The notes under the pieces: generated by a model
What the model was told of the DNA's origin: nothing
The model's input: only the letters and a program-made list of their open reading frames with translations
Database searches by the model: none
Shown here: one piece after another, positions 12,201 to 60,207 of the stretch
How the letters are laid out: each line of letters begins with the position of its first letter
How positions within the stretch are numbered: the first letter of the stretch is position 1
Source of the DNA: Calditrichia bacterium
GTDB lineage: Bacteria; Calditrichota; Calditrichia; JAJRVZ01
DNA: 64,000 bases
Reading direction: 5' to 3'
NCBI GenBank assembly: GCA_963765585.1
Contig: CAVXXB010000003.1
Span: 38,025 to 102,024 of the forward strand
Position numbers and translations under genes: made by a program

Positions 12201-13535
12201 ATGCATACCATATTCACCTGTTTCTTAAGACAATTTGTCAATTATTGGAATTCTCTTTATCTCCGAATCAAAATTGAAATCTTTGTACTTCTTATTATTT
12301 TTTATTCATTCATAAGCGAAAAGTTAGTTCATGTTTTTTCGGATCTTCTTACCCGTCCGAATATTACCGGGCTTGGGTTAAATAGTTTTAGCGGCCATGT
12401 AATCGCCCTATTGCTTTCCATATCTATGCCTTTTGTTTATTTTAAACTGCTGCCGCGCCAGGAAAGTTTGCGGGCACTCCGCATTCTTCCCCTGTCATCT
12501 AATCATGCACTGGCGGCCTTACTTGTCTATATCACCTGGTATGAGCTGATCTCTTTGATTATCAGCGGTCCGGTATTCATTGCCCTGTTAATAACATCAG
12601 GTCCCCTTCCGGTCAGTTATTACCTTTATCTGCTGATAGTTTTTCCGGTAACATCTCTATTGCTGTTACAATTCTTATTACGGAAATCAAAGAGCCGCAC
12701 GCTGGTTACTTTACTCTATTTTATTAGTCTTTCAATATATTTTAGTGTGCATTCATTTGTCTATTTACATTATGATTTTTATTTGATTATTGATATTTTT
12801 CTGTTCCCAGGGATATTGATCTTGCTTTATAATTTATTAAAGCCATTTGCCGATCATTGGGATCTGCCGTTAAGTATAATGCAAAGCAAAGAAGGCGTGG
12901 TACAGAAAGTAAAACATTCATTACAATATGCACAGATTCCAAAAATTGTTCCCGGCAAAATTCACCCTTTTCTTGCCCGTGAGATCCTGGGTCATATCAG
13001 AAATAAAAATTATTTGCGGATGAAGATCTTAAGTATAGTACTATTTTCAATTGTTCTGTTTTTTTTCGGAAATATCCGCCCGGATTTTATTGCCGTTATT
13101 TGTTTTATATTTTGCTGGTGGCACTACAGTCATCAGTTCAACAACAAATATGTTTTTTCAGAATCGCGGGATTTTTTGGTCAGTCTGCCGGTACAATATT
13201 ATCAAATTTGGTTTTCCAAATTTCTGACTGAGATTATCCTGCTTCTCCCCATACTGCTGATAAGTTTGCTGGCTCTTTTATTTTTTGGCGATTCGGGTCT
13301 GCATAGTATAGTAATATTTATGGCACTGGTAACATTTTCCGTTCTGCTACTATTCATTATTACAAACATACGTTTACTTTTTTTAGATAATGCCAGAATG
13401 GCGGGTTATGCCTATCATTTTCTGGTTATTTTCTCTTTGATAATGATCGGTAATTTTTATCTGGTCGGACCAATAGTTATTCTGGGACTATTAGTCTATT
13501 TATCATTTTTAAGCTATCGTCAATTTTCACGCTGA
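12201..13535 (+). CDS. Polytopic membrane protein (putative ABC-2-type permease partner)
   Basis: Very hydrophobic, with at least 10 predicted TM segments. It lies 8 bp upstream of an ABC ATP-binding protein. Confidence 0.5.
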   Translation: MHTIFTCFLRQFVNYWNSLYLRIKIEIFVLLIIFYSFISEKLVHVFSDLLTRPNITGLGLNSFSGHVIALLLSISMPFVYFKLLPRQESLRALRILPLSSNHALAALLVYITWYELISLIISGPVFIALLITSGPLPVSYYLYLLIVFPVTSLLLLQFLLRKSKSRTLVTLLYFISLSIYFSVHSFVYLHYDFYLIIDIFLFPGILILLYNLLKPFADHWDLPLSIMQSKEGVVQKVKHSLQYAQIPKIVPGKIHPFLAREILGHIRNKNYLRMKILSIVLFSIVLFFFGNIRPDFIAVICFIFCWWHYSHQFNNKYVFSESRDFLVSLPVQYYQIWFSKFLTEIILLLPILLISLLALLFFGDSGLHSIVIFMALVTFSVLLLFIITNIRLLFLDNARMAGYAYHFLVIFSLIMIGNFYLVGPIVILGLLVYLSFLSYRQFSR

Positions 13536-14268: not shown

Positions 14269-14418
14269 CCACTAAGTCACAAAGTAGAAAATTATTTGTT
14301 ATAAGAAACATTTACAACTATAAGATATAATATTTGAATTTTAATTGTAATTTTTTAAATCATTTTCCCTTTGTGTCTTAGAGTCTTTGTGGTAAAGTTT
14401 GTGAATTAATCAGGTATA

Positions 14419-16359: not shown

Positions 16360-16444
16360 GTAATCCTCCAAAAAAATTGTTAAAGCCTTGTAATTTAGTA
16401 ATAACTACATGGGAAGTCAATTTTATTCCGCATAACATGAGTAT

Positions 16445-16469
16445 GTAGTCCATCTATAAGATGGACTAC
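16445..16469. repeat. Perfect palindrome GTAGTCCATCT-ata-AGATGGACTAC (11-bp stem); an identical stem recurs at 39826..39850
   Basis: Read directly. The second copy is GTAGTCCATCT-ttg-AGATGGACTAC. Confidence 0.85.
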
Positions 16470-17639
16470 ACTGATCCGCATAATTCCGGTAATTTTTCAC
16501 CCTGCAATCGGGCGACTACCACGGCACCAACACTATCACTCAATACATTTACTGTCGTACGAAACATATCCAGCACTCTGATCAACCGCAAGTATTATCC
16601 CAACACTTTCCAGGGGTAATCCTACGGCGGAGAGAATAATCGACATCATCACAAGCCCGCTCATCGGCACACTGGCAGCTCCGATCGAAGCCAGCAAAGC
16701 GGTAATCACAACAATAACCTGATCACTGACCGTCAAATCGGCACCATAAACCTGTGCAATAAATATCGTAGCGACACATTCATATAGGGCCGTACCATCC
16801 ATATTAACGGTTGCCCCAATTGGTAATGTAAATCCGGCCACCTTCCTGGAAACACCAGAATGCTCCGTTACAGCTGACATAGTTAATGGTAATGTCACCA
16901 TAGACGAACACGTGGAAAAAGCAGTGATAATTGCCGATGGCATTCCACGGTAGTGCTTAACCGGATTTCTATTCCCAATAAATCTCAGTAATAATGGTAA
17001 ATTAATAAATGCATGTATCGCTAATCCTACAAGGACAACCATAAAATAAAAACCAAGAGACTGGAAGGCACTAAAACCTGTTTTTGCAACTATTTTTGCG
17101 GTAATACCAAACACACCCAGTGGTGCACTCCAGACAACCAAATGAGTTAGTTTCAGCATTGCTTCAAATGCAGCCTGAAAAATATCTCCCATAGTCTTTT
17201 TATGTTGATCCTTCAGGCGGGTAATAAAATATCCAAAAAGTACGCTAAAAAAAATGACCGGCAAGACGTTCCCGTCAACCATTGATTTAAATGGATTCTC
17301 GGGAATAATTCTCAGTAATAAATCCTGAAAGCCCTGATTGGCCGCCGGAATAGATTTTACCGAACTTTCAAGCCCTATCTCGGCTCCGAGACCTGGCGCA
17401 AAGAGATTAACCAGGATCAGCCCGGTGATGATTGCCATCAGGCTGCTTAAAATATAATACCCAAATGTATGCAGGCTAAGTTTCCCCAAACCGGTCGCAC
17501 TGCCAACACTAATGACACCGGAAATAATCGATGTGATAATTAATGGCATGATCGCCATACGAAGCAGACGTAGAAATAATTCAGATAACGGTTCGGCGAC
17601 AGGTAAAACGGATTCGCCTGCCAACCATCCCGTAAGCAT
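16466..17639 (-). pseudogene. Dicarboxylate/amino-acid:cation (Na+/H+) symporter (DAACS/GltP family) with apparent frameshift near 16580 and no canonical start upstream of TM1
   Basis: The ORF at 16536..17639 ends ...ILAVDQSAGYVSYDSKCIE. A +1 shift at ~16580 (one extra base in the run gatCagagtg on the coding strand) gives the canonical family C-terminus [34 protein letters not shown]. That frame ends at a TAG at 16468..16466. Upstream of the ATG at 17639 the frame stays open and encodes a TM1-like segment (IFKKLTLTHYIFIGLFLG). No ATG, GTG or TTG precedes it before the in-frame stop. Confidence 0.6.
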
Positions 17640-19653: not shown

Positions 19654-19903
19654 TTTAGTATCATGAAATAATTTGACTATATTATTTTCGCGATACCTTC
19701 TTCAACTTGAATTACTCATATATTTACCACAAAGACACAAAGATAAATGAAGTAAACAGAAATTATACGGCAAAGATTGTATCTATCATTTTTTATCGTT
19801 TCTGGAAATCCATTATTTTTTCTAACTTTATGTCTTGATGACTTAGTGGTTATTCAAAATTTGTAATAAAAATATATATCAGGTGTATTAAAGGAAAAAA
19901 TTT

Positions 19904-22108
19904 ATGATGATACGGTTTTTAATCGGTGTAACATTTCTACTTCTATTTTTTTCATGCCAGGAAAAGGAAGAAATATTTATTCCGGTTATCAAACTGGATA
20001 ATCAGGATAAAGTATTCACATTTACAAATAAAAGCTCCGGTTTTTATCTTGGCAGAACACATTCCGAAAATCCATCCACGGGCTATGGCTGGATAGTAAA
20101 TGGGATTAATTATCTGCGAGACTATCAAATAGTCATAAATAATCAGATATTGCAAAGAGACTCCGTTCAGCATGTAAGTTATTATCCACATCAGCTCATC
20201 CGTGAGTATGGTAATGGTTTGCTCGAATCGTTTACCCTGCTTGACTCACTCGATGCCATTGTTTGGCAAATCACGACTCCGGATCCTAAAATGCAACTGG
20301 CATTTATTCCGGTTATAGGTGATTCATTTGCACAGAATAGAATCCTGAATAATGAGCATGATTCTTTATTTATCTCACCGGAAGAGCCGAATCCTGAAGC
20401 AGGTAATTTCGGGAACCTTGTTTCCGGCTTTCGCTGGCTGCAAATATCTCCACAACGTGCAGCCATTTTTTGCGTGTTAAATACCAGTAGTGATAAAGTT
20501 AAGAGTGATCTCGGCTTGCTGGCAAAAACTTATGAAAAAAATATTTCAGATCGGCGGGAGCGGATAACAAAATTTTTATCCATAAATGATGTAGTCACAA
20601 ATATTCCGGAAATCACAGATGCCATCCAATGGGCGCAAATTTCTCTTGATGCTCTGGTTTCGGAAAAAACGGATACCGGCATTTGGGCAGGAATACCTGA
20701 TGTTCCCAAATATCGGGGAAGAGATTCTTTCATTTCTCTTACTGGCGCATTCCTGTGCACGGGAAAATTTGATCAGGCCAGGCAGATACTATCAAAATTT
20801 GCTAAAAATCAGTTAACGAATTCAGATGATACCTGGTTTGGCAGGATTCCCACACAAATATCCAAACATGAAATCTCTTATAATGGTGCTGATGTCACCT
20901 GGTGGTTTATACGCGATGTATATGAGTATATTCTTTACAGTGGAGACACAGAATTTGCGGCAGAAATATTTCCTACAGTAAAAACTGCTCTGATGGGTGC
21001 CCTCAGATACCGGATGGATGAGAAATTCCTTCTGCGTCACCAGGAACTCGAAACATGGATGGGCGGGTATGATTTTCAGTTATCACCAGTACGTCGAGGT
21101 AACCGCGCAGTTGAGATTCAGGCCCTATGGTATACCGCGCTGCAAATAGGATCCAAACTCGCCAACCTGAATGGTGAGAAATCCTTATCAGAGCATTGGA
21201 TAACCATTGCCCGCGAGACAAAGAAAAATTTTCTATCTTACTACTGGAATGATTATAGTTTCCGCATGTATGATCATTTAAAACCGGATGGCAGTACAGA
21301 CAATATGATTCGCCCTAATCAAATATTTACGGTTACCATGCCGGATCTTCCCGGTATTGAACCCTTAGTAAGTGATGAAGCACAGGCATATGTAACAAAC
21401 CAGGTTACAAATAAATTGACATTTCGTTTGGGGGTATCTTCACTGTGGTTAAAATCTTCTGATTTTAATGCATCAGTTGTCAGCGGGACAGATCAGGATG
21501 AAAATACGATCAATCAATATGGGGTAATCTGGCCATGGCTGGCGGGACCCGTGATATCCGCCCTGTCTTCCTGTAATTATGATTATCTGATGTTCGAACT
21601 GTTTTATAATGAAGCCATTCAGATTCTTGATTGGGATGCGATTGGTAATTTTCACCAGCTAATGGCGCCTCCGACAGAGACCGGACAGATAAATCCTGTA
21701 ATTGCCGGTTCGGTATCGCACGCTAAAAGCCTGGCCGAATTTACCCGTAATTTTTATCAGGATATAATTGGATTTAAACCGAACGCGTTGGTTAATGTCG
21801 TCCAATTTAAGCCGGTATTCACGGAAGAACTTTCATTTATCAGTGCAAACTTACCCATGGCGGGCCAACTTATTCATTTTGAGGGTGAAAGAAGTGAGCA
21901 GCTGACTTCCTTTAATATAAGCGCAATAAATATTACGGACACTCTGAGAGTGATTCTGAATTTTCCCGGATATGACAGATCCTATTATAATTTAACCCGG
22001 TCCGAACCAGGTATTGTAATTCAATACGAGAATGCCGACCGGTTTAGGTATCGTAAATATGATAATTTGGATTGGTTTTTTGTACAACTTAGCCTTTTAT
22101 CCGATTAA
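19904..22108 (+). CDS. Amylo-alpha-1,6-glucosidase / glycogen-debranching-enzyme-like (GDE_C family) lipoprotein
   Basis: Lipobox-like signal (LLFFSC). The C-terminal region resembles the GDE_C six-hairpin glycosidase domain (AVEIQALWYTALQIG, QIFTVTMPDLPG). It lies adjacent and convergent to glgP. Confidence 0.6.
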   Translation: MMIRFLIGVTFLLLFFSCQEKEEIFIPVIKLDNQDKVFTFTNKSSGFYLGRTHSENPSTGYGWIVNGINYLRDYQIVINNQILQRDSVQHVSYYPHQLIREYGNGLLESFTLLDSLDAIVWQITTPDPKMQLAFIPVIGDSFAQNRILNNEHDSLFISPEEPNPEAGNFGNLVSGFRWLQISPQRAAIFCVLNTSSDKVKSDLGLLAKTYEKNISDRRERITKFLSINDVVTNIPEITDAIQWAQISLDALVSEKTDTGIWAGIPDVPKYRGRDSFISLTGAFLCTGKFDQARQILSKFAKNQLTNSDDTWFGRIPTQISKHEISYNGADVTWWFIRDVYEYILYSGDTEFAAEIFPTVKTALMGALRYRMDEKFLLRHQELETWMGGYDFQLSPVRRGNRAVEIQALWYTALQIGSKLANLNGEKSLSEHWITIARETKKNFLSYYWNDYSFRMYDHLKPDGSTDNMIRPNQIFTVTMPDLPGIEPLVSDEAQAYVTNQVTNKLTFRLGVSSLWLKSSDFNASVVSGTDQDENTINQYGVIWPWLAGPVISALSSCNYDYLMFELFYNEAIQILDWDAIGNFHQLMAPPTETGQINPVIAGSVSHAKSLAEFTRNFYQDIIGFKPNALVNVVQFKPVFTEELSFISANLPMAGQLIHFEGERSEQLTSFNISAINITDTLRVILNFPGYDRSYYNLTRSEPGIVIQYENADRFRYRKYDNLDWFFVQLSLLSD

Positions 22109-22124
22109 CCTTTTCCCCTTTTTG

Positions 22125-26707: not shown

Positions 26708-27487
26708 TTAGAATTGTATGTGTCCCTCCATATACAACTGTCCCCTGCCGGCTATTGTCACCCGGTCACTATTCAACTCACAGAACAACTCGCCGCCGCG
26801 GCATGATATCTGGCGGGCTTCCATCTTATTCTTACCCAGTTTTTTTGCCCAATATGGAATCAGTGTACAATGGGCCGAACCGGTAACCGGATCTTCCGGT
26901 ATGCCTACCGCCGGTGCAAAAAAGCGCGAAACAAAATCTACCTCATCTCCGGGCGCTGTCACAATAACTGCCATGCGATCAAGTTCTTTCAGTTTTGCCA
27001 TATATGGATGAAGTTCACGAACCTCTTTTTCAGTATCATATACAACAAGATAATAATTTGAGGCAAGCACTTCCTTCGGTTCCAGATCCAGTCCTTTTAA
27101 TAAATTTTCAGGCACCTCGCATACTTCCGGGGGATGTACCGGAAAATCCATGGAATATATATCATCTTTTTTTACCACATGTAATTCACCACTATGTGTA
27201 CCAAATTTTACTTCCGTTAAATCCGGCTGAATTTTATTCATGAGCACATAGGCGCTGGCAAGGGTTGCATGACCGCAAAGATCTACTTCGCGTTGCGGAG
27301 TAAACCATCGCAGCTGATAGTAGCCGCCACGATCCACAAAAAACGCGGTTTCTGACAGATTGTTTTCTTCGGCAATTTTTTGCATCAGATCATCTTCCAG
27401 CCAGTATTCCAGTGGAATTACCGCGGCCGGATTTCCGGAAAAAATACTACTTGAAAAGGCATCAATTTGAAAAATGGGAAGTTTCAT
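26708..27487 (-). CDS. PhzF-family phenazine-biosynthesis-like isomerase
   Basis: MKLPIFQIDAFSSSIFSGNPAAVI is the PhzF/DAP-epimerase-fold N-terminus. AGGTGGAG RBS 5 nt upstream of ATG 27487. The track ORF starts 22 codons further upstream. Confidence 0.8.
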   Translation of the reverse strand: MKLPIFQIDAFSSSIFSGNPAAVIPLEYWLEDDLMQKIAEENNLSETAFFVDRGGYYQLRWFTPQREVDLCGHATLASAYVLMNKIQPDLTEVKFGTHSGELHVVKKDDIYSMDFPVHPPEVCEVPENLLKGLDLEPKEVLASNYYLVVYDTEKEVRELHPYMAKLKELDRMAVIVTAPGDEVDFVSRFFAPAVGIPEDPVTGSAHCTLIPYWAKKLGKNKMEARQISCRGGELFCELNSDRVTIAGRGQLYMEGHIQF

Positions 27488-27610
27488 TTTTACTCCACCT
27501 GAATTTTCGGTTGATTGACCATATAAAATCGGAATAATAGTTAAAATTATCAACTATTATTAGCTTTTTTTTGTATTTATTTGGAATTGGTTAGTCATGG
27601 CGAAAATTAG

Positions 27611-27984
27611 TCCCTGAGCACCTGAGTTCCTAAGCAATTCCTATATTACCTAAAATGTCATCATGTAATGATCTTTTACCCGAAATGTTAAACTTGATAG
27701 AATGTGATAAATCTAAAGAAGAACCGCAGAGGACGCGGAGAAGTCACAGAGTTCACTGAGAAAAAAAATACTGGATACTTGATGCTGGATGCTGGCCAAA
27801 TCATGGATGATTTGGTCCCGATATGTTTTCTGGAGGAAAACGCTTCTATCGGGAGCGATCTTTGTGGAAATACATTGCGTCATTACGGTTAAAAAAGTTG
27901 AACACATAGTGACAATTGTACTTCGGGTAAAAGGTCCTTCCAGGATGACATCATCGGATGCACTTAGGGACTCAGGTGCTCAGG
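27611..27984. mobile_element. MITE-like non-autonomous element, or a large structured RNA: ~70-bp imperfect terminal inverted repeats flanking a ~230-bp core
   Basis: Left end tccctgagcacctgagttcctaagc (27611..27635) matches the reverse complement of gcacttagggactcaggtgctcaggga (27958..27984) at 24 of 26 positions. Inner arms also pair: the reverse complement of 27651..27676 begins ttcgggtaaaag..., and 27922..27953 reads cttcgggtaaaaggtcc...gatgacatcat. The interior has only 62- and 64-codon ORFs. Confidence 0.4.
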
Positions 27985-28108
27985 GATAATGGACTTTCTT
28001 AAACTAATTTTACTCCGTATTCTCCATCGTTTTATTTTTAATCCCATTTTTCATATATTATATGTTTATACCGGAATCGGTAGTTTTAACAGAAGTAAAG
28101 GAATTGGT

Positions 28109-29998
28109 TTGAGTAAAAATCCCAGCAGCGACCTGCGTCAATATTTTCGAATATTATCTTATTTAAAACCCTATACACGACAAATCATTGTTATTTTAGT
28201 TTTTAATTTCATGTTTGTCATATTCAATGCACTGTCAATCTGGATGGTGGCACCCTTTGTCAGCACACTTTTTGACACTCAGGACGAACAGGTTGAACAG
28301 AGCATTACTGAAAAAGCGCCTGAGGAAGAAGTCAGTTTCTTTGATCTGAATGAGTGGCTTAAATCTAAAATTGATGGCTTGTTCAAACGCTCGGACAAGA
28401 TCGAAACTTTAAAACTGCTTTGTTTTATGATATTTTTTACTTTTCTATTGAAAAATATGTTCGCCTTTCTTGAAGCCTGGTTTGTTACCTATGTGGAACA
28501 AAGAGCAGTCAAAGATATGCGCGATGAAACCTATGGTCATATTCTGATACAACCACTTAGTTTCTTCACCAGATATGAAACCGGGAATTTAATGTCCCGG
28601 ATCACAAATGATATCACCACACTCAGCGTCACACTAAATCAGAATTTTACAAAAGTCATCCGTGAGCCTCTGGTCGTTATTATTTTCCTGACCATTTTGA
28701 TAAGTATTAGTTGGCAACTGACTTTGATTGCCTTACTTGTATTTCCGATAACCGGATTTATGATAACAAAAATCGGCCGGATTATTAAAAGACGCAGTAA
28801 ACGTGTACAGGAAAAGATTGCTGATATTACCACTGTATTACAGGAAACCTTTACCGGTGTAAAAGTGGTTAAGGCATTTTCCATGGAAAAATATGAGGAC
28901 GATAAATTTAAAGAAAAAACCAACGTTCATTTTAAAGCCAGTGTGCGACAGTTACGTATGAATCGGTTAGGTTCTCCCCTTTCTGAAACTCTCGGCATCG
29001 GTATCATGGTTCTGGTGCTATGGTTTGGCGGAAGCCTGGTACTGGTTGGTCAACTTGTCAGTGCCGAGGATTTTATTCGATTCCTTGCCGTTCTCTTTTC
29101 TATAATGTCACCGATAAAAGCACTTGGCCAGTTAAATAATGATATTCAGGTATCACTGGCGGCCGGAAATCGTATCTTCTCCATTTTGGATACCCAATCT
29201 GACATTATTGATAAGCCGGATGCGTTAAACAAAGAAACGTTCGACCATAAAATCACATATGACAATGTTAGTTTTCAGTATAGTGCAAATGATGATCTCG
29301 TATTACATGATATTCAATTGGAGATTGAGAAAAATACAAAAGTTGCATTTGTTGGTGGTAGTGGTGCAGGAAAGACAACCCTCGTGAACCTGTTGCCCCG
29401 GTTTTATGATGTCCTTAAGGGCCGTATTTTAATCGATGATACAGATATTCGTGATATGAAGATGGCCGGTCTGCGTAAACTAATGGGCATTGTCACCCAG
29501 GAAGTCATTTTATTCAACGACACCATTGCTAATAACATTGCCTATGGCCTTAAAGACTATTCGCGAACCGATATTGAAAACGCTGCGCGTCTGGCAAATG
29601 CGTATGATTTTATTATGGCCTTTCCCGATGGATTTGAAACCATGATCGGTGAGCGTGGCATGCGCCTCTCCGGTGGCCAAAGACAGAGAATATCCATAGC
29701 AAGAGCTATCCTGAAGAATCCACCGATCCTCATTTTTGATGAAGCCACCTCTTCCCTCGATTCCGAATCTGAACGTCTGATACAGGAAGCTATTGATAAT
29801 CTGATGAAAGACCGTACCGTTTTAATTGTGGCCCATCGTCTCTCCTCAATTATAAAATCCGACTATATTGCAGTAATGGAGAATGGCAGGATCATAGATA
29901 TCGGCAACCATGAAGAGCTTCTGGAACGATCGAAAAGATACAAGTTTTTGTATCAGCTGCAGTTTGCGGATAAGAATGATGTTGGCACGGATGAATAA
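28109..29998 (+). CDS. ABC transporter, fused permease/ATP-binding (MsbA/lipid-A-exporter-like)
   Basis: Six-TM ABC exporter domain, then Walker A GGSGAGKTTL, signature LSGGQRQR and Walker B ILIFDEATSSLD. The track ORF starts at 27989, inside the MITE-like arm. An in-frame TTG at 28109 with an AAGGA 8 nt upstream gives MSKNPSSDLRQYFRILSYLKPY, a typical MsbA N-terminus. Confidence 0.85.
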   Translation: MSKNPSSDLRQYFRILSYLKPYTRQIIVILVFNFMFVIFNALSIWMVAPFVSTLFDTQDEQVEQSITEKAPEEEVSFFDLNEWLKSKIDGLFKRSDKIETLKLLCFMIFFTFLLKNMFAFLEAWFVTYVEQRAVKDMRDETYGHILIQPLSFFTRYETGNLMSRITNDITTLSVTLNQNFTKVIREPLVVIIFLTILISISWQLTLIALLVFPITGFMITKIGRIIKRRSKRVQEKIADITTVLQETFTGVKVVKAFSMEKYEDDKFKEKTNVHFKASVRQLRMNRLGSPLSETLGIGIMVLVLWFGGSLVLVGQLVSAEDFIRFLAVLFSIMSPIKALGQLNNDIQVSLAAGNRIFSILDTQSDIIDKPDALNKETFDHKITYDNVSFQYSANDDLVLHDIQLEIEKNTKVAFVGGSGAGKTTLVNLLPRFYDVLKGRILIDDTDIRDMKMAGLRKLMGIVTQEVILFNDTIANNIAYGLKDYSRTDIENAARLANAYDFIMAFPDGFETMIGERGMRLSGGQRQRISIARAILKNPPILIFDEATSSLDSESERLIQEAIDNLMKDRTVLIVAHRLSSIIKSDYIAVMENGRIIDIGNHEELLERSKRYKFLYQLQFADKNDVGTDE

Positions 29999-30082
29999 TT
30001 TCCGAGTACGGATATAAGTACAGATAGTCATGCTGTAAGCACCTTTGACCCGGAGCACGATTATCCCGGCAGGTTTACTCTT

Positions 30083-30180
30083 TTAACCGCAAAGAGCGCA
30101 AGGGATAAAATAAAAGATCGCAAAATAAATAAATTGATTTTTCTTTGCTTCAGTTACCTCTCCGCGTTCTCTGCGGTTAA
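30083..30180. repeat. Inverted repeat ttaaccgcaaagagcgc ... gcgttctctgcggttaa flanking ~60 bp, between convergent gene ends
   Basis: Read directly. A likely bidirectional terminator or structured element. Confidence 0.5.
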
Positions 30181-30196
30181 TCTTTATCTAATCACC

Positions 30197-30961
30197 CTAA
30201 AAAATCACTTCTATCCCCAAGGGACAATGATCCGATCCATGAATTTCTGGTAAAATAAATGCATCTTTCAAATTATCTGTCATATTATCACTGATAAAAA
30301 AATAATCAATCCGCCAGCCGATATTTCTTTTACGCGCATCCATACGGTAACTCCACCAGGTATAATTATCAGGCTCCTTATTGAATACCCGAAAGGTGTC
30401 GATATAGCCATGATCAATAAATTTATCGATCCATGCACGTTCCTCTGGTAAAAATCCGGTATTTTTAGTATTTGTTTTTGGATTCTTGAGGTCAATTTCT
30501 GTGTGTGCGGTGTTATAATCCCCACAGATAATTATTTTTCGTCCTTCTTTTTTTAATGTTTCACATCGCTCCAATACCGTATCGGAAAAAGCCAGCTTAA
30601 ATGGTACACGACCCAGATCATGTTGCCCATTGGGGACATACATATTTATCAACACAAAATCACCGTGATCAGATTCGATGACCCGACCCTCAGCATCATA
30701 ATCTTCCACGCCGATTCCATATGTAATCTTTGCAGGTTCATTCAGAGAAAAAGTCGCTACTCCGCTATACCCTTTCTTTTTTGCAGAATGCCAGTAGGCA
30801 TGGTAGCCTTCAGGCTCGGCTATCTCCGGCGGAACCTGTTCCTTATGTGCCTTCGTTTCCTGCAAACATACAATATCCGGTTTGGATTCATCAAACCATT
30901 CTCTATATCCCTTACCACTTGCCGCTCTGATTCCATTTACGTTCCAGCTGTAGATCTTCAT
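30197..30961 (-). CDS. xthA: Exodeoxyribonuclease III (AP endonuclease)
   Basis: MKIYSWNVNGIRAA and LQETK, plus the C-terminal SDHCP motif of the ExoIII/EEP family. Confidence 0.9.
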   Translation of the reverse strand: MKIYSWNVNGIRAASGKGYREWFDESKPDIVCLQETKAHKEQVPPEIAEPEGYHAYWHSAKKKGYSGVATFSLNEPAKITYGIGVEDYDAEGRVIESDHGDFVLINMYVPNGQHDLGRVPFKLAFSDTVLERCETLKKEGRKIIICGDYNTAHTEIDLKNPKTNTKNTGFLPEERAWIDKFIDHGYIDTFRVFNKEPDNYTWWSYRMDARKRNIGWRIDYFFISDNMTDNLKDAFILPEIHGSDHCPLGIEVIF

Positions 30962-31008: not shown

Positions 31009-31146
31009 AAACGTAATTAGGAATTGGGAATTGGGAATTAGGAACTTGTAATTTTTTTGCTATAATCACCTGTGTGTAAAATGTCAAATTCCCAATTACA
31101 AATTACAAAGAACCAATAACTAATTCCCAGTTCCAAATTACGTTTT
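31009..31146. repeat. ~55-bp inverted repeats built from GGGAATT heptamers flanking a 28-bp core containing TATAAT
   Basis: Left arm: aaacgtaattaggaattgggaattgggaattaggaacttgtaattt. The right arm reverse-complements to aaaacgtaatttggaactgggaattagttattggttctttgtaatttgtaattgggaatttg. Core: tttgctataatcacctgtgtgtaaaatgt. Confidence 0.7.
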
Positions 31147-32482: not shown

Positions 32483-32605
32483 GAATGAGGAGTGAGGAGT
32501 CAGAAATTAGAATATTTCAGATAGTGCTTTTTGCTCTGGAAACAAATATTAAATATTGATAACACAAAAGTTCATAGTATAAAATTCATACTTAACAACC
32601 CATTC

Positions 32606-35600
32606 ATGCCGAATAATAAAGACCTACATGATTTGTTTCAGCTCCGGGCGTTGAAAAGTGCCAAGGTTTCTGAAATTAGTGAGGCCACCGCCGCTTCTCC
32701 GGTTCCTGTTGCAGAACGAGTAAATTTACATATTGGGAATCCGGTTCAGGATGGACGCCTGGTTGATTTGTATTATCAGATGGTGACTGGAATTCAACCG
32801 GGGCCAAATCCGGAATTAGAATTATCAGGATGGGATACTGAGCATAAAGCGTGGCTAGAACTCATCAGAAATTCCATAAGAAAAAGTGTCCCCTATTTGC
32901 CACGCGGCGGGTATTTACGGTCTGATCCCGGAGATGTAATCACCTTTTTTAAAAGCTGGCTTACAAAGGATCAACCTGAACCACTGGAATATGATTTTGG
33001 TGAAAAATCGGGAAAAAGAGAATGTATAATCGCCAGCGGCGGCATTAACGAAGTTTTACGTGTTATACTGCATTCCATATCGGACTATCTGATTCACAAA
33101 CCGGCCCACATTATTTTTTCCGGGATTAAACCATCCGGGTGTCTAAAGACATTTAAGGCACTCCAATTGTCGTATCTTAATTTAAAAGAGGAGCATCAGC
33201 TAAAAATATTATCCGGTTACTTCAATGCCAAAAACGATGAAGTCGTTTACCTGATCCTCGGACATCACATATCTGAATTAATGCGTCGTGAAATCCGGCA
33301 AATATGCCTGCAACACCCATTGATGGTAATCGAAGCAAACGATACACCAAACCACCTTTCCCTGGCCCGTGAAGCAAAAATGCGTGATCGGGTAATTCGT
33401 ATTTTGTCTCCTGCTACGATAATTCCCAATAAGACGAGACTACCGATTTCTTTTATTGCCGGAAATGCTGACTATTTGCGTGTATTCGAAAATGTACATT
33501 TTGAATTAAAGGGTACCCCGCCTGCCGCGGAGGTCGAACTCCTGTCATTTCTGATAAACAATAAAGAGGCTCCGGAAACTCTGCCGTTACCCGATGCCAC
33601 AGGTGAAGAATCGGGATATTACACAACAATGGACCGGAATCTGGCGAACTCCGTGAAGTTACATGAACGCATAGGATTGCAGTACACCGATCGAACTGCC
33701 ACAATTGAGAAAATCAGCAATAAATATTTTAGCAGAACAGACAGAATACGTGACCGTTTTTTAAAAAAGTACCCGGCATCTTTACGGGCTGATGATCCCT
33801 ACGCAAATCAGGAATCGTCTCAGGTCTTAGCCGAGTTTTTGACCGATATCCGGACAAATACAAATCTGAACCAAATTTATGAGTCATTTCTGTCCGCCTT
33901 TATTACCCATCATCCACAATATGATTTCGACAAATGCTTTGTATCAAGCGGCTCCTCACGAACCGCACTGAGTCTTCTGGGTTTTCAATGTGGCATTAAA
34001 ACGGCCATTGTGCCTGATCTGAGCTGGACATATCACCACTGCTTCCCGGAAGTAAAAACTGTTCCCCTGACAGAAGATCTGATGCTCGATGAACAGTCTG
34101 TTTTAGACCAGGTCCGGGATGTATCGAACTCGTCGTCATCCGGTCAGTTGGCATTAGTGCTTAATAATCCTCACAATGCCAGCGGCAAAATTTTTGATGA
34201 ATCTGTACTGAAAAATTTATTAATAAAACTACTTACGCAGAAAATATTTGTGATTGACGATTTGTCATATGAGAATGTAGCACCGGCAAAAAACCTGAGG
34301 GGACCCAAAACATTGAAGCAGATCGCCCTCGATCTGCGGAAAACAGGTGTTCTCAATGATCTGGATTTGCAATACCTGATCAGCGTTCACTCACTTTCAA
34401 AGACTGATTGTTTTGCCGGGGGCAGACTATCGGTTATTGAAATTTTACATCCCGGATTACACAGCGAGTATAGCGAAATTAACAATAATATCGTGCCAAA
34501 CTACATGGCAATATTTCTGGCGTATATGTTCTACCGCAACCCGCCAGATCAGGTACGGACCTTCTGGACTTTACGCAATGAGATCATGGATGAACGCATG
34601 AGAGCGCTCGAGCAGGCAGAAAATGAACTGCCGGCAGACCGTAACCTGTTCAATATCAAAATTATCCGTCCTATGGGCAGCATGTATCCACATCTGATTG
34701 TCACAGATCTTCCTAAAGGTATATCTCTGGATTGGCTGGCATCCGGGTTGGCACGTCGTGGTATTGGACTGGTTCCGCTTACCACATTTAGCCGCACCGG
34801 AAAAGGATATGAACTGGCCAGAAAAACCTTTCGATTAACTCTGGGAGGTAGTTCAGATCATGAAGAACTATTCCGGAAGACTCGACGAGTATTAATCGAT
34901 CTGAATCGTCTGATCAAAGAGGAATCAACCAGATATAATTTAAATCTCTTTCCGCTGCGTAAATTAAAATATCGCCCGGAGAAATATTTTCCGGAAGCTA
35001 TTAGCATGTGGAATGATATTACAGATAAAGTAATTGTCGACGCGCAATTACTGTTTGAAAAAAAATGCCGGCAAATACCAGCCCTGTCCGGTGACGATTC
35101 ACTGGCCAAAAAATTTAGCACTGATTATTTACCATCCCGTCTGGAGATTCTTAAAACCAGGTTGGATGATCAGATAAACATTAAATCTGCATTCTTGTCG
35201 GAGATATCAGAGAATCCGCATCATCAGATCGAAGCCCTCTTAAAACAGGAACTATATAAAGAAAATATTGAAATTCGTGCGGAGAATTTTCGTCACCGGA
35301 TGTTTGACAGAACGGTACATCCCACACAAAATTACGCATTAAAAGTTGATTTGACAGCAAACCTGTTATTTGAGGCTATTCTTAGCGGGCAACTTCCGGA
35401 CCGGCAGACAATTGGTCATCTCATATCTGAATTAGTAGCCGAATACCTGGGTCTTAATGTTCCCATTCGCGCAGTGGAAGAAGGAAATGAACTGGTCATG
35501 GATCTAAAGGCCGTATTATTGGCCGAGGAACATACCCGCTGGAATTCCATGGAATCCGTTACGCCATACTTGCTTTCCTTCTGGGGCGACTGGGATGGCA

Positions 35601-38017
35601 GTACAAGACCATCCGGACAGGGACATCTTCTGGTTTCTGCTGTTTTACTTGAAAATGTTCGCCAACTGTCTGAGCTGGTAAAGTCTTTAAACAAAAACTC
35701 ACCGGAAGTCCATATCCCGGCAGACATATTAGCCGAAATTCAAAATCTGGATTCACGAACCATAAAATTCTGGAAATTGTTTCATCGCATCAATATTTTG
35801 ACCAATCAACTGGAAAAACGATATCGCAGCGTCTTACCCCACAATTTTAGTAGTTCTAAGCTGAGAAAGATTGCATCACGTTTTAAAGTGGTCCGGGATC
35901 CTATCAGGGCGTTATGGCAACATAATGACCGTCTTGAAAAAAAGATGCTTGATCTGCGCAAGCAACGCCATGATTCTATGGAATATTATTTTGCCCTAAA
36001 TAAACGTCTGCGTAAACTCTTATTTGAAAATATATCCTTATTCGGTGCATCATTCCATAATCCCCGATTTGCAATAAAAGCCGGACTATACCGCAGTCCA
36101 TTACGACGATTCAATCTAACACCCCGGATCCATCAGAATATGATCACATCAACAGATCAGTTCGCGATCGACACCACAGTTCATAACATGATGGAAATAA
36201 ATGAAATCTCCGGGAAATACGGAAATCCGGGAATGATTCAGGCGTTACAAATTAGTATGTCAGACCGGCCCGAGGCATTAATCGCACTCGACCAGAAGAT
36301 CCGATCTTACCGGGAAAATTTATTACGCGAGCACCCGGATCTTCAGGTGCCAAATATTTGGCTCATTCCCCTGTTTGAGGATGTCGAAACGGTACAAGGT
36401 TTAGGAAAATATCTGGACCGGTTATGGGAATACAGTATTGCCAGTAGAAGAATCGATCAGGATACGGCTGACCGGTTTGCTGAAATGATTTGTGAAATTT
36501 TCATTGCCGGCTCTGACCTGAGTCAGCAAGTGGGTCAATCAACTGCTGCATTTTTATTTAAAGATGCCAAATTGAAAACCATACAATGGTTAGCTGAAAA
36601 GGGTCTTAGCGACAGAGTTCGTATCAAACTTGGCAGCGGTGAACCGATGCAACGCCAGGGTGGCTATTATAAATCGGCACTAACCAGAAATCCATTTATA
36701 AATAGCCGCAATTCACGGATACGCATGACACAAAATTTGAGTCCGGCCGCACAAAAGAGCACCGAATATGCCAAGAGCCCCTTGCAGGGTATTATGTCCA
36801 CCGGTGATTTAAGAACATTTCAGAGTCGTGTTTTTGAAAAAATAAAATTTATTCCAACGGCAGAGCGAGCACGCCTGCTGCATCATATAATGAAAGCACA
36901 GGAATTCTATCAGAACGAACTTTTCCGGATAAGCGAACCATTTCTTGAAACACGACTGGCCTTCGAAGAGAGAGGATTTCAGGAACTGGAGCGATTATCA
37001 TTTGGACAACGAGATCCTATTTATTCAGATTTCACGGATCTGGTGACGCAAAATTTCCGCCGAATATTGTATGGCAGCGATGATGATGTAGTGGGTATTC
37101 ATGTTATCTCATATTTTATTTCACGGACCACACCAGCGCTTCGCGACCGTCCAACGGTAAGACCTACCCGGGAAGTGACCTCTGACCGTGGACAGAGAAT
37201 TATTCAGCGTATTGCCCAGACATTACCCATGTCACGTCATGGCACGCTATTAAGGGCTATCGGACATAATCGTGCCCAGACTCTCATTCTTGGTATAAAT
37301 CAGCTAACTACGGGCTTATTTCGTGCCCTTGATGAATTTGCAGCTACGCAAAGCACCTATGAAGATGGCTTGGCTTTGATAAATGACAGAATTTTACCAA
37401 ATCTTCCCGTTCAGGAAATATTGCATAGCCTGCGAATTTATCACGAACCAAGCCATACATATCTGAAGAAAATGGCACGGGGGTTTCCTGCAGAAAATTC
37501 TGCGTTTCTCTATCTACGCGAAGAATTGGATAGTATGAATAAATATATCGGGATTTTTCAGAAAGAATTTCTGAGACGTCACGGTCTGAATATAAATGAA
37601 TTCTTCGATGGCAATATGTTCAAGCCTGATCTGTTACCCACAATCAGACCATCTCTGGCCGTTTTACTTCAACCTGATCTCTTTAATACATCCGAAGAAA
37701 AACTGATTGAACAAATTAGTGGAAAAGTCGACAGTGACTGGAACGAGGAAATTCGTCCGCTTCTGGAATTGCCATTAGCCATACAAAACTGGCGTCAACA
37801 GACATGGGAATTAATTGAGAAGCCCATTTTTACACAGGTGAAAAGTTTTGTTGAATTGGCCCACGCACTTAATACACTAACTGCCGGACAATCGCAAAAG
37901 GATGCCGGTCTGGCGATCAACCCGTCAAAGATGTTAAGAATGAGTTCAAATATTACCTCCCTGCTATCGGGTGTACGTGATGATTCGATGCGTCAATTCC
38001 TTAGCCTCTGTGGTTGA
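32606..38017 (+). CDS. Giant multidomain protein: class-I aminotransferase-fold (PLP) domain fused to a divergent phosphoenolpyruvate-carboxylase-like domain
   Basis: Aminotransferase motifs sit at canonical spacing: NNPHNASG (cf. NPxNPTG), IDDLSYE ~30 aa later, SLSK (the Schiff-base Lys) ~45 aa later, then GGRLS (cf. GxRxG). PEPC-like motifs sit at E. coli-like spacing: TVHPTQ (TAHPTE); ~363 aa later IPLFEDVETV (VPLFETIEDL); ~37 aa later IAGSDLSQQVG (GYSDSAKDAG); ~42 aa later GSGEPMQRQGG (GRGGSIGRGG). The protein ends in Gly, as PEPC does. The track ORF starts at a TTG at 32531; the first ATG is 32606. Confidence 0.6.
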   Translation: MPNNKDLHDLFQLRALKSAKVSEISEATAASPVPVAERVNLHIGNPVQDGRLVDLYYQMVTGIQPGPNPELELSGWDTEHKAWLELIRNSIRKSVPYLPRGGYLRSDPGDVITFFKSWLTKDQPEPLEYDFGEKSGKRECIIASGGINEVLRVILHSISDYLIHKPAHIIFSGIKPSGCLKTFKALQLSYLNLKEEHQLKILSGYFNAKNDEVVYLILGHHISELMRREIRQICLQHPLMVIEANDTPNHLSLAREAKMRDRVIRILSPATIIPNKTRLPISFIAGNADYLRVFENVHFELKGTPPAAEVELLSFLINNKEAPETLPLPDATGEESGYYTTMDRNLANSVKLHERIGLQYTDRTATIEKISNKYFSRTDRIRDRFLKKYPASLRADDPYANQESSQVLAEFLTDIRTNTNLNQIYESFLSAFITHHPQYDFDKCFVSSGSSRTALSLLGFQCGIKTAIVPDLSWTYHHCFPEVKTVPLTEDLMLDEQSVLDQVRDVSNSSSSGQLALVLNNPHNASGKIFDESVLKNLLIKLLTQKIFVIDDLSYENVAPAKNLRGPKTLKQIALDLRKTGVLNDLDLQYLISVHSLSKTDCFAGGRLSVIEILHPGLHSEYSEINNNIVPNYMAIFLAYMFYRNPPDQVRTFWTLRNEIMDERMRALEQAENELPADRNLFNIKIIRPMGSMYPHLIVTDLPKGISLDWLASGLARRGIGLVPLTTFSRTGKGYELARKTFRLTLGGSSDHEELFRKTRRVLIDLNRLIKEESTRYNLNLFPLRKLKYRPEKYFPEAISMWNDITDKVIVDAQLLFEKKCRQIPALSGDDSLAKKFSTDYLPSRLEILKTRLDDQINIKSAFLSEISENPHHQIEALLKQELYKENIEIRAENFRHRMFDRTVHPTQNYALKVDLTANLLFEAILSGQLPDRQTIGHLISELVAEYLGLNVPIRAVEEGNELVMDLKAVLLAEEHTRWNSMESVTPYLLSFWGDWDGSTRPSGQGHLLVSAVLLENVRQLSELVKSLNKNSPEVHIPADILAEIQNLDSRTIKFWKLFHRINILTNQLEKRYRSVLPHNFSSSKLRKIASRFKVVRDPIRALWQHNDRLEKKMLDLRKQRHDSMEYYFALNKRLRKLLFENISLFGASFHNPRFAIKAGLYRSPLRRFNLTPRIHQNMITSTDQFAIDTTVHNMMEINEISGKYGNPGMIQALQISMSDRPEALIALDQKIRSYRENLLREHPDLQVPNIWLIPLFEDVETVQGLGKYLDRLWEYSIASRRIDQDTADRFAEMICEIFIAGSDLSQQVGQSTAAFLFKDAKLKTIQWLAEKGLSDRVRIKLGSGEPMQRQGGYYKSALTRNPFINSRNSRIRMTQNLSPAAQKSTEYAKSPLQGIMSTGDLRTFQSRVFEKIKFIPTAERARLLHHIMKAQEFYQNELFRISEPFLETRLAFEERGFQELERLSFGQRDPIYSDFTDLVTQNFRRILYGSDDDVVGIHVISYFISRTTPALRDRPTVRPTREVTSDRGQRIIQRIAQTLPMSRHGTLLRAIGHNRAQTLILGINQLTTGLFRALDEFAATQSTYEDGLALINDRILPNLPVQEILHSLRIYHEPSHTYLKKMARGFPAENSAFLYLREELDSMNKYIGIFQKEFLRRHGLNINEFFDGNMFKPDLLPTIRPSLAVLLQPDLFNTSEEKLIEQISGKVDSDWNEEIRPLLELPLAIQNWRQQTWELIEKPIFTQVKSFVELAHALNTLTAGQSQKDAGLAINPSKMLRMSSNITSLLSGVRDDSMRQFLSLCG

Positions 38018-39714: not shown

Positions 39715-39825
39715 ATGCCCCTTGCAGAGATTATTATAACATAGTAATCGTCATAAAAAGGACAGACGTTATTACATTTTAAGAATTTTTCTTGAAGTTT
39801 TGTAAGGGGGGAAGATCCAATTAAT

Positions 39826-39850
39826 GTAGTCCATCTTTGAGATGGACTAC
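39826..39850. repeat. Second copy of the GTAGTCCATCT/AGATGGACTAC palindrome
   Basis: Same 11-bp stem as 16445..16469, with loop ttg. It lies between two co-oriented minus-strand genes. Confidence 0.85.
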
Positions 39851-39873
39851 ATTCTGGACTACATCATATAAAA

Positions 39874-46266: not shown

Positions 46267-47856
46267 TTAAAACGCGAAAACCGTCTGAATATTCGTAGTC
46301 CGGATAGTCTCATCCGGCCCACTGATTAGTCCATCTCCATTAAGATCTTTATAGGTTTCACGATAATCCAGTACCAGCGCAGCGCCTCCTGCAATTTCAT
46401 AATGCAGTCTCGCGCCGAGAATCGTTCCTTCGGTTTTATTGAAGAGATCGTCTGCATTTTGCTGATAAAAATAAGCGCCTGCTTTCTTAATTTTCGGTAC
46501 AAAGGAAGTATTCAGATCAAGATCCATCCGCAGGGTATTTACCTTAATGCCGTTTCCCGACATTCTTTGATAATCGGCACCAAATATCATTACATTCCAT
46601 AAATTGAAATCAGCACCGGCCACATATCCCTGCAGTCGCGTATCAATCATATGCAACTGCTCACGTTTTGTGATGGTATACAGATCCCCGGCTCCGGTTG
46701 AATCTACAACAGAAACGCGATCCAGCTCATAGGTAGTACTAAAATATTCCGGAGCAAAGCGCTCTTCCTGAATCCGGTGCTCGGCAAAGAAGTTCATAAA
46801 TCCTACTTTACCGCGAACGCCGGGAAGAGTATAACCCCAGCCACCGCCATAACCAAACTTTGCCGCCTGTGCATATGCAGTCAGCTCAAAGGTCTTATTC
46901 TGAATAAACGGATAACCGATATCAGCAGCAAATGCAATCTGTTCTTTATTGGGAGCCTGGTCAATCGTCATCGGTATTGGTTTTAAAAGGCCTTCATTAA
47001 AAAAGAGGTCATTATTTTGAATAAAGGGATTTTGGCTATTATCTGTATAGCCGTTGCCGTCACGATCGGGATCCCAGTAATCTGCTACACCATTGCCATC
47101 ACTATCAACGGCCTGACGCCCGGTTCCCGGTGTATCGGGAAAATCATCCAGTGCATCCGGAATACCATCTCCATCCCGGTCTCTCAACGTGGCATACTGA
47201 TTGCGATCATAAACAACGCTGGCTCCCAATTCCAGTTTACCTAAAAATCTATAACCAACCCGTCCGGCAAATAAGCCACCTTTTTTACGTCCCAACTCAT
47301 TAAAATCATTCATCATGATGTCGGCTACAAAGCCGCCGGTGTCTATTCCAATGGTCATACCGGTACGAATTACACTGGGGTATTGTATCGTATTGCAATA
47401 GCGGTTCATTAAAATACCATATCCCAGTCGGTAGTTATTTATCGCGCCAACGCGGGCATAAAACGGATCCCCTTTGTGTGCCCAGCGGATGTAATATATC
47501 TTCTCAAGAATATCATTGGCAGAATCCCAGTTATCTGTACGGATATTGCCATTTTCATCAATAAAAATACGCAGATCCAGAGCGATACCAAACTTTCCGG
47601 CGGAGAACTCCGGCATGAAACTGATTTGTGTATGAATTTTATCATCAATGGTCACCGCACCAACTGAAAAGCCAAATCCAAACGGTGCATCGCCCTCTTT
47701 TGGAAAGGGCAGGTACTCATCTTGCTCAGATTCCTGTTTTGCATCAGAGGTTTTTTCATCTTCCTGATTTAAACCCGGAAGTAGTGCAGAACCTGAAGAC
47801 TGGCCGAAACCGGAAACAACTAAAAGCACTAAACTAAGGATGATTAAATATCGCAT
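46267..47856 (-). CDS. Outer-membrane beta-barrel protein with thrombospondin-type-3 (Ca2+-binding) Asp-rich repeats
   Basis: Signal peptide. DRDGDGIPDALDDFPD...DSDGNGVADYWDPDRDGNGYTDN are TSP3-like repeats. It ends ...TVFAF with a C-terminal aromatic residue, as in an OM barrel. Confidence 0.7.
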   Translation of the reverse strand: MRYLIILSLVLLVVSGFGQSSGSALLPGLNQEDEKTSDAKQESEQDEYLPFPKEGDAPFGFGFSVGAVTIDDKIHTQISFMPEFSAGKFGIALDLRIFIDENGNIRTDNWDSANDILEKIYYIRWAHKGDPFYARVGAINNYRLGYGILMNRYCNTIQYPSVIRTGMTIGIDTGGFVADIMMNDFNELGRKKGGLFAGRVGYRFLGKLELGASVVYDRNQYATLRDRDGDGIPDALDDFPDTPGTGRQAVDSDGNGVADYWDPDRDGNGYTDNSQNPFIQNNDLFFNEGLLKPIPMTIDQAPNKEQIAFAADIGYPFIQNKTFELTAYAQAAKFGYGGGWGYTLPGVRGKVGFMNFFAEHRIQEERFAPEYFSTTYELDRVSVVDSTGAGDLYTITKREQLHMIDTRLQGYVAGADFNLWNVMIFGADYQRMSGNGIKVNTLRMDLDLNTSFVPKIKKAGAYFYQQNADDLFNKTEGTILGARLHYEIAGGAALVLDYRETYKDLNGDGLISGPDETIRTTNIQTVFAF

Positions 47857-48085
47857 ATGATCTCCTATATCCTTTAATGTGAGTTCCCGAGAATATCTCA
47901 GAAACGAGGAATTTATTATTCTGGTTTTACCGATATTTTCGGCAAAAAATCGATGGATGTGAATATTTCTTTAAATTTGGTCTAAAATATTTTACCCATT
48001 AACCTATTTTCCTTTTAACCTTTTGCTATAAAAAAAAGGCTGCCCTGATATCAGAACAGCCTTTGTGCAATCACTTTAAAGTAAA

Positions 48086-59269: not shown

Positions 59270-60207
<938 letters not shown>

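Follow-up and report, generated by a model that had tools for sequence, protein, structure and literature searches.

A 388-bp intergenic palindrome in a Calditrichia genome, possibly a mosaic of short tandem-repeat modules

The 64-kb stretch of a Calditrichota metagenome-assembled genome (MAG) that was analysed here, referred to as the window, carries at positions 27605-27992 a long imperfect palindrome (388 bp) with arms of ~80 nt. It sits between a PhzF-like gene and a divergently oriented MsbA-like ABC transporter gene, the latter facing an exonuclease III gene (xth) further downstream. The nearest relatives of the MsbA-like protein are encoded in Calditrichota/Calditrichia MAGs (L002, 84% identity; L004, 66%; L003, 64%), and metagenomic proteins match it at 78-88% identity. 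The percentages given below for relatives are those of the ABC protein with respect to that of the window, unless stated otherwise. The PhzF/ABC/xth gene order is kept in L012/L013 (88%), L015 (79%) and L003 (64%). An initial annotation made from the sequence alone had described the region as a ~370-bp element bounded by ~70-bp imperfect terminal inverted repeats, similar to miniature inverted-repeat transposable elements (MITEs), with a large hairpin RNA as the alternative.

The palindrome is genuine, and chance does not account for it. A repeat search of the window returned outer arms of 24 nt that are 96% complementary (27611-27634 / 27963-27986) and inner arms of 30 nt that are 87% complementary (27655-27684 / 27922-27951), as had also been claimed for the inner segments. 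The outer-arm 24-mer has two sites only in the 64 kb, with 0 occurrences in 100 shuffles, and a gapped alignment of the left arm with the reverse complement of the right one, spanning about 27606-27696 / 27913-27990, contains 67 identical residues out of 78 aligned positions, besides 13 nt of indels. Repeat search, shuffles and alignment thus agree with the structure proposed initially, the arms reaching ~80 nt. Folding of 27605-27992 as RNA of the + strand gave a single long nested hairpin of −141.8 kcal/mol (z = −8.6). The corresponding values are −131.9 kcal/mol (z = −8.5) for RNA of the - strand and −72.8 kcal/mol (z = −8.5) for DNA. The spacing between the arms is 328 nt. Wobble pairs in the arms, considered as a strand-specific sign of selection at the RNA versus the DNA level, are too few to separate the two (2 T·G versus 1 A·C).

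An assembly artefact in the form of an inverted chimera was considered and ruled out, because the right half of the element (27797 onward) recurs at 99.6-100% identity in an independent sample (contig L011, Logan ERR11523668) and because the arms are imperfect. The proposed lack of coding capacity in the core also held, in that the three internal open reading frames (ORFs; 62-66 aa) are without a Pfam match and a six-frame chimera of the element found zero protein matches among 5.8 billion proteins. A degraded gene remnant was ruled out as well, the internal ORFs matching no family.

The arms are themselves made of short tandem units, 3-4 degenerate octamers each (Table 1, with TAATGGAC as the fourth unit on the right) with CTTAGGGACTCAGGTGCTCAGGGA-like ends; a unit of the arm type, CTTAGGRACTMAGGTGCT, is found 3 times in the 64 kb. 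Autocorrelation of the arms peaks at lags 8 and 16 (0.38-0.43; 0.38-0.41 at lag 8). The heptad-periodic 'CCTGAGN' flavour attributed to them in the initial annotation correctly groups them with the other short-unit intergenic repeats of the window as one family, but the period is 8, not 7.

A sensitive self-comparison of the window showed that four separate parts of the element recur as paralogues at three further loci, whose contexts differ (Table 1). In module M1, the stretch 27714-27750 is 84% identical to 30150-30186 (-). Positions 27855-27949, namely module M3 and the inner right arm, match 30121-30027 at 71% over 96 nt. In module M2, the stretch 27770-27813 is 84% identical over 44 nt to 3714-3756 (-), within a heptad-rich spacer upstream of an SDR gene. 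Finally, the outer right arm with its T/C-rich flank (27962-28068) matches 60361-60471 at 65.5% over 116 nt. The paralogous modules account for ~74% of the element when the left arm is counted as an inverted copy of the right one, whereas no paralogue of the two-level hairpin was found in the window self-comparison. Because the copies elsewhere share modules rather than the whole element, the behaviour is mosaic, as in bacterial interspersed mosaic elements (BIMEs) and BOX elements, rather than that of a MITE.

Table 1. Coordinates (window numbering) of the palindrome, its modules, related elements and neighbouring genes.
Feature	Position	Strand	Remarks
Outer left arm	27605-27634		ATTAG, then three degenerate 8-nt units TCCCTGAG CACCTGAG TTCCTAAG
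Inner left arm ATGTCATCATGTAATGATCTTTTACCCGAA	27655-27684		Pairs with 27922-27951
Module M1, tandem CRCRGAG-type units (AACCGCAGAGGACGCGGAGAAGTCACAGAG)	27710-27750	+	5' half of the middle helix
Module M2	27770-27816	+	Heptads CTGGATA CTTGATG CTGGATG CTGGCCA, then hairpin CCAAATC-ATGGAT-GATTTGG
Two-level hairpin CCCGATA..GTTTTC-TGGAG-GAAAAC..TATCGGG	27815-27851	+	From the fold
Module M3 (GCGATCTTTGTGG...CGGTTAAAAAAG...)	27855-27921	+	3' half of the middle helix; paralogue about 30062-30121 (-)
Inner right arm TTCGGGTAAAAGGTCCTTCCAGGATGACAT	27922-27951		Paralogue about 30027-30061 (-)
Outer right arm CTTAGGGA CTCAGGTG CTCAGGGA TAATGG	27963-27992		Paralogue 60361-60390, one 8-nt unit fewer
T/C-rich 8-nt-periodic flank	27993-28029	+	Collinear with 60391-60430
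Partial paralogue E3	30027-30190	-	M1, M3 and inner right arm, without outer arms and M2; convergent ABC/xth spacer
Related element E1	3577-3832	-	(CAGGATN)7 array, M2-bearing core, TTGACA-17-TACACT, (CCAGTAC)7 array; upstream of SDR gene
Related element E6	60153-60471	+	(GTAGGCA)8, N27, CTTGTCAAG, T/C-rich octads, CTTAGGGACTAAGGTGCTAATGGAC (right-arm counterpart)
PhzF-family gene	26708-27487	-	Pfam; divergent from the ABC gene
Orthologue-conserved block (TTTTATTT..CATTTTTCATAnATTA..TTTAnACC)	28030-28078	+	From alignments; downstream of the element
MsbA-like ABC transporter gene	28109-29998	+	Start TTG 28109, ribosome-binding site AAGGA 28098-28102
Exonuclease III gene (xth)	30197-30961		Convergent with the ABC gene

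The content of the orthologous site differs in the relatives with 79-88% ABC identity, none of which offers a clean empty site. L012/L013 carry there a (GAGGATAA)n array, a core and T/C-rich octads, together forming a long hairpin (fold z = −7.3). The array upstream of the ABC gene consists of 13 units in L012 ((GAGGATAA)13, L012:9684-9789), and L013 differs from it by 5 units (40 nt), the two sequences stemming from two metagenomes. A second copy of this L012 element family, with (GCGGATAA)7, is found 3 kb away upstream of xth (L012:12890-13085). Yet another sequence occupies the PhzF/ABC site of L002 (84%), whereas the 759-nt spacer of L015 (79%) holds no repeat element and a called 47-aa ORF (L015:7097-7240), whose product looks hydrophobic by eye. 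The spacer of the more distant L003 (64%) is only ~220 nt long. A similar replacement is seen upstream of a K+ channel gene on comparing the window with L042 (83% identity of the channel protein), where homology begins exactly at a TTGACA box and all that lies beyond is replaced. An inner-arm-type hairpin (GTCATCCTACAAGGATC..GATGCTTACAGCATGAC) is also present between ABC and xth in L014 (85%). The inner-arm unit is therefore older at this 3' site, and probably gave rise to the element upstream of the ABC gene.

With these data, the element is best described, with a probability of about one half, as a non-coding mosaic palindrome assembled from 7-8-nt repeat modules, of the kind represented by repetitive extragenic palindromic (REP) sequences, BIMEs and the short tandemly repeated repetitive (STRR) sequences, and apparently species-specific and young. 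On present evidence, its interpretation as a MITE is not established and is less likely. In the mosaic scheme, replication slippage would create the short-unit arrays and alter their length. The older hairpin unit would then have been copied, along with M1, M3 and the inner arm that are also present 2 kb away at the 3' end of the ABC gene, into the upstream spacer. An inverted duplication or a template switch involving ~80 nt of the right-hand sequence would yield the left arm, and the heptad-plus-hairpin module M2 would end up in the loop. Dispersal would occur by recombination, gene conversion or template switching among scattered copies, and not by cut-and-paste of a defined unit.

Several considerations weigh against this description. 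A full-length family with the same termini may exist elsewhere in the genome, beyond the 64 kb searched, and the paralogous modules might represent decayed remains of a unit that was formerly mobile. Three modules with paralogues in just 64 kb point to a high genomic copy number, as an active mobile family would give. The 96% complementarity of the outer 24 nt suggests that the arms either arose recently or are under selection to pair. The second option would speak for a function, be it as the substrate of a transposase or HUH enzyme or as an RNA helix. Furthermore, the 9:1 strand bias of GGA triplets in the core is not predicted for a purely neutral DNA palindrome.

The ORF call for the ABC gene that starts at ATG 27989 (669 aa) is an artefact, because homology with the orthologues, at both the protein and the DNA level, begins at TTG 28109 (the equivalent codon being GTG in L002 and L015, TTG in L012/L014), and the 40-codon extension upstream of it is not conserved. 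The mis-start and the alternative TTG preceded by AAGGA, both pointed out initially, are thus backed by the alignments, with the correction that ATG 27989 is at the outermost edge of the right arm in its extended form rather than inside the arm. DNA homology upstream of the ABC gene reaches only ~80 nt above the start codon, to about 28030, and the promoter or operator of the gene probably lies in the conserved block 28030-28078. The right arm is just upstream of this block and not on it, unlike the position at the promoter that had been proposed. On the PhzF side, a TTGATA-N17-GATTTT sequence on the minus strand (−35-like box 27548-27553), which by eye is conserved in L012 and L015, would represent the promoter region of that gene; its −35-like box is ~50 nt from the left end of the element. 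The element thus fills the space between the two probable divergent promoter regions, outside both promoter-like blocks. It is probably part of neither mRNA. The effect of a mosaic palindrome at this position would most likely be structural, either as a cruciform- or hairpin-prone spacer between divergent promoters or as a hairpin in a read-through transcript, no sequence-specific function being seen.

The element belongs to a wider repeat landscape. The intergenic fraction of the window exhibits a lag-7/14 periodicity that is missing from coding DNA, and most intergenic arrays other than the arms of the element peak at lag 7. Half of the intergenic regions (10 of 20) fold at z ≤ −3.5, compared with values of 0 to −1.3 for coding controls. 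Perfect arrays are present at 3577-3624, (TACTGGG)7, at 3785-3832, (ATCCTGN)7, the minus-strand unit of which is CAGGATN, and at 60153-60208, (GTAGGCA)8, and heptad-based hairpins are found at 31012-31145, 58342-58414 and 61838-61970. The number of units in the 3785-3832 array was 7, 6 and 5 in three samples of the same species (the window, L040 and L041), with flanks that are 100% identical. Copy-number polymorphism was seen for this array and for that of L012/L013, the arms of the element not being among the arrays shown to vary. The same units also occur in other genera, as exemplified by TACTGGG in the window and (ACTGGGT)6.6 in L003, while L012 additionally contains (AATTAGA)7 and the inverted pair (CGGATAAA)/(TCCGCTTA).

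Other features of this landscape were noted in passing. Runs of the CRCRGAG type found in M1 (AACCGCAGAGGACGCGGAG, AACCACAGAGCACACAGA, CACAGAGATCCACTGAGGAAGCACGGAG) recur in intergenic DNA at 27722-27741, 30150-30186, 58303-58323 and 63738-63758, and also in the relative L042 (L042:9720-9765). An unrelated high-GC IMG/VR contig (L039, 1868-1898) shares 22 identical nt with M1, which may be due to chance. A palindrome of 28-36 nt with a perfect stem, ATGTAGTCCATCT..AGATGGACTACA, has two intergenic copies 23 kb apart (16440-16475 and 39820-39855) and a REP-like or terminator-like look. The spacer 39715-39873 folds at z = −12. Two intergenic stretches of ~140 nt, 5.3 kb apart and inverted with respect to each other (14274-14415 and 19705-19836), are 64% identical and contain CACAAAG/CTTTGTG-type units. 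Contigs of the same species end at the E1 repeats (L040 starting at ~3782, L041 at ~3619). As for coding regions, the 1828-aa ORF at 32531-38017 and the long ORFs at 5690-7534, 12201-13535, 46267-47856 and 52986-54314 have no Pfam match at E ≤ 1e-5.

A recurrent arrangement accompanies the arrays. An invariant TGTCAA is located 25-29 nt after the last array unit in six of the six array-bearing elements, from three species (window 3604-3660 and 60188-60245; L012:9774-9830, 12931-12990 and 3811-3870; L003:13342-13400). On the opposite strand, it reads TTGACA-N17-(TACACT / AAACTT / CAACTT / AAAAAT / ACCTTT), directed into the array. Four of the six sites point at a co-oriented gene (SDR, PhzF, xth and a 170-aa ORF), and the other two run antisense into a convergent gene. 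Window-wide, sequences of the form TTGACA-N16-18-nAnnnT are not enriched (11 found, 10.8 expected), and therefore the reading of TGTCAA as a promoter rests only on its fixed position beside the arrays. The motif TTATCCnnTTAACCTTTT, which corresponds to the right-hand T/C-rich octad part of these array-TGTCAA elements, occurs 8 times versus 1.6 expected, always on the + strand (3675-3692, 22097-22122, 47991-48024 and 60328-60353), and at 22097 it overlaps the stop codon of a GDE-like gene. All the array-TGTCAA elements seen are on the + strand of their locus, which may reflect a replication-direction bias.

Among the alternatives to a mosaic repeat, the one that survives best, although still unlikely, is a non-autonomous mobile element, either a MITE mobilized in trans by a DDE transposase or a hairpin similar to REPINs (REP doublets forming hairpins) and dependent on a REP-associated tyrosine transposase (RAYT) or other HUH enzyme, in both cases encoded elsewhere, the paralogues being decayed or truncated insertions. 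The long terminal inverted repeats, the small size, the lack of coding capacity and the intergenic position of the element are all consistent with it, as is its absence from the orthologous site of all relatives examined, and REPINs are indeed inverted REP doublets that form hairpins (PMC3116915). However, the relatives hold other elements at that site rather than a clean empty one, and the 328-nt arm spacing greatly exceeds the 60-120 nt usual in REPINs. A target-site duplication, which the initial annotation had suggested looking for, is missing at either plausible boundary. With the boundaries marked by slashes, no direct repeat of at least 3 nt in register flanks GGCGAAAATTAG/TCCC...GGGA/TAATGGAC (right flank also /TAATGGACTTTC) or the extended-arm version GGCGAAA/ATTAG...ATAAT/GGACTT (right flank /GGACTTTC).

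Arm-like sequence does occur again at 60361-60390, but neither a second full-length copy nor a second pair of termini is present in the 64 kb, no match to the element was obtained in ~100 kb from seven related Calditrichota loci, and the copies share differing modules and not a whole unit. Of the further copies that the initial annotation had suggested looking for, only paralogues at the level of modules were found in the window. A degenerate 24-nt arm pattern gave 0 matches in a metagenome collection scanned for exact matches only, and the arms were equally unmatched in the six-frame protein search. The same kind of scan with a 22-nt pattern of the L012 sister family returned two unrelated contigs (L016 and L017), the L012/L013 contigs being absent from the collection. 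IMG/VR scans with arm, M1 and M2 patterns produced only single matches at chance level, one of them in coding DNA (L033). No transposase, RAYT or Y1 transposase is found among the 39 long ORFs of the window, nor a RAYT among the called genes of L012, L013, L015 and L042. Short-read contigs of the same or related species break at, inside or beside such elements (L001 ends at ~27572, L011 starts at 27797 and L014 starts 63 nt before the ABC gene), which suggests that the repeats fragment short-read assemblies and are multi-copy. On the whole, the terminal inverted repeats, short length and non-coding nature that led to the MITE-like label stand, whereas the duplication, the second full copy and the transposase that would go with it are lacking in the window.

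It is rather improbable that the short-unit repeat cassettes of Calditrichia constitute an undescribed functional system, in the sense that the arrays found 25-29 nt from TGTCAA, with TTGACA, N17 and nAnnnT firing into the array, form extreme 5' leaders acting as copy-number-tunable platforms for a post-transcriptional regulator, the 27605-27992 element, with its GGA-rich core, being a decoy or small RNA derivative of such cassettes.

A more doubtful proposal is that the core (about 27710-27870, +) encodes a small regulatory RNA with stem-loops exposing GGA, a decoy for a CsrA-like or another single-strand RNA-binding protein, of which the GGA-rich (CAGGATN)7 at 3785-3832 (-) and the L012 (GAGGATAA)n arrays would be variants. 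GGA triplets are found 9 times on the + strand and once on the - strand of the core (GGAT, 3 versus 0), and hairpins with GGA in or at the loop are predicted (CCAAAUC-AUGGAU-GAUUUGG and GUUUUC-UGGAG-GAAAAC). An extended −10-like TGATAGAAT ends at 27703 and a terminator-like hairpin is at 27841-27857, but promoter-like and terminator-like matches are no commoner than in shuffles. CsrB carries the CsrA-binding repeat CAGGAUG, to which the (CAGGATN)7 unit is equal, and CsrA/FliW often travels with flagellar systems. One such flagellar system is encoded in Caldithrix (PMC5317091), and CsrA, S1 and Csp have been suggested as binders of intergenic heptamer arrays (PMC4679880). However, many arrays of the same genome have no GGA on either strand (TACTGGG, GTAGGCA, AATTAGA), and the isolated core folds at z = −2.9 only. 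The whole window has no Rfam match at gathering score. For 27400-28200, searched at E ≤ 10, the best scores were 16-19 bits against thresholds of 38-80. This RNA reading finds no conservation in any relative, so that covariation cannot be invoked. The large hairpin RNA proposed initially may have the stable fold in its favour, but conservation lends it no support, the element being located upstream of the two conserved promoter-like blocks that flank it and missing in the relatives at 79-88% identity.

Least probable is a role of the element within an extended, structured leader at the 5' end of the ABC transcript (an attenuator or a processing site acting in cis, with the promoter to its left). 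The very stable fold, the orientation shared with the ABC gene according to the core strand bias and a sigma-70-like TTGATT-16-AATAAT at 27511-27538 (+) directed into the element would lend themselves to it. However, this sigma-70-like match falls within the conserved 5' part of PhzF, the divergent gene, and matches of this type are at chance frequency. No riboswitch or leader family was matched, and the orthologues keep only the last ~80 nt before the start codon with everything upstream replaced, so that a conserved leader is excluded.

Taken alone, the element matters little, as one more intergenic palindrome without a demonstrated function; in practice, it misled the ORF calling of the ABC transporter gene and probably fragments short-read assemblies. 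Of more interest is the wider pattern, in which most long intergenic regions of the lineage are made of 7-8-nt tandem units and their inverted copies, whole elements are swapped between species while the occupied sites persist, units are shared across genera and copy number varies within a species.

Among known systems, MITEs such as Correia, Nezha and RUP are similar to the element in size, terminal inverted repeats, lack of ORFs and promoter-adjacent position, but it has no target-site duplication, second full-length copy or partner insertion sequence in the window, and its paralogues are modular and not collinear. REPINs (PMC3116915) likewise form a hairpin from a repeat unit present in two inverted copies, and are non-autonomous and intergenic. 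They differ in that their spacing is of tens of nt, whereas here it is 328 nt and the loop is filled with other repeat modules, and in that hundreds of near-identical copies are not in evidence for the element, with no RAYT in the window. REP/BIME sequences of enterobacteria and BOX elements of Streptococcus pneumoniae share with it the intergenic, non-coding and hairpin-forming character, and a location between convergent and divergent genes. They also share the construction from a few modules combined differently at each locus (here M1, M3 and inner arm; M2; outer arm and flank), and the persistence of occupied sites across related species with a species-specific repeat sequence. On the other hand, the modules of the element in turn consist of degenerate 7-8-nt tandem arrays, the window contains no recognised RAYT gene, and REP sequences measure 20-40 nt as opposed to ~380 bp with ~80-nt arms. 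No description of such repeats in Calditrichota was found in the literature, where the only repeat found for the phylum is an 18-nt palindrome of Caldithrix abyssi, aAACCGTTgaAACGGTTt, likened to REP by its authors (PMC5317091). It is also an intergenic palindrome, but of unrelated sequence, of 18 nt only and without a tandem-unit structure.

The remaining comparison is with intergenic heptamer arrays, which, like the repeats described here, consist of units of 7 nt (here 8 nt as well) in tandem, found only between genes and often near promoters or start codons, with units recurring across genera (TACTGGG in the window, ACTGGGT in L003) and variable copy numbers. Heptanucleotide arrays of cyanobacteria, the STRR sequences, were reportedly described by Mazel in 1990, and the TACTGGG unit of the window is one base off the complement of STRR1 (ACTGGGG). 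Arrays of TAACTGA and of other heptamers are present between the genes of Beggiatoaceae, Cyanobacteria and Bacteroidetes (PMC4679880; bioRxiv 10.1101/2022.06.06.494920), those of Nostoc being among them (bioRxiv 10.1101/2022.06.06.494920). Heptanucleotide repeats are the commonest class of long simple sequence repeats in many bacteria and have been ascribed to polymerase slippage (Mrazek 2007, summarised in PMC4679880), which is the accepted generator of heptamer simple-sequence arrays (PMC4679880; bioRxiv 10.1101/2022.06.06.494920). In contrast with these systems, the element has short arrays of 3-4 degenerate units, one the inverted complement of the other, on either side of a 240-nt core, and many different units coexist in one genome instead of one dominant heptamer. 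The wider pattern nevertheless recalls the STRR and TAACTGA repeats, which have long gone unexplained in cyanobacteria and Beggiatoaceae, and Calditrichota would offer a further, phylogenetically separate place in which to ask whether such repeats are slippage junk, mobile DNA or platforms for the binding of regulators.

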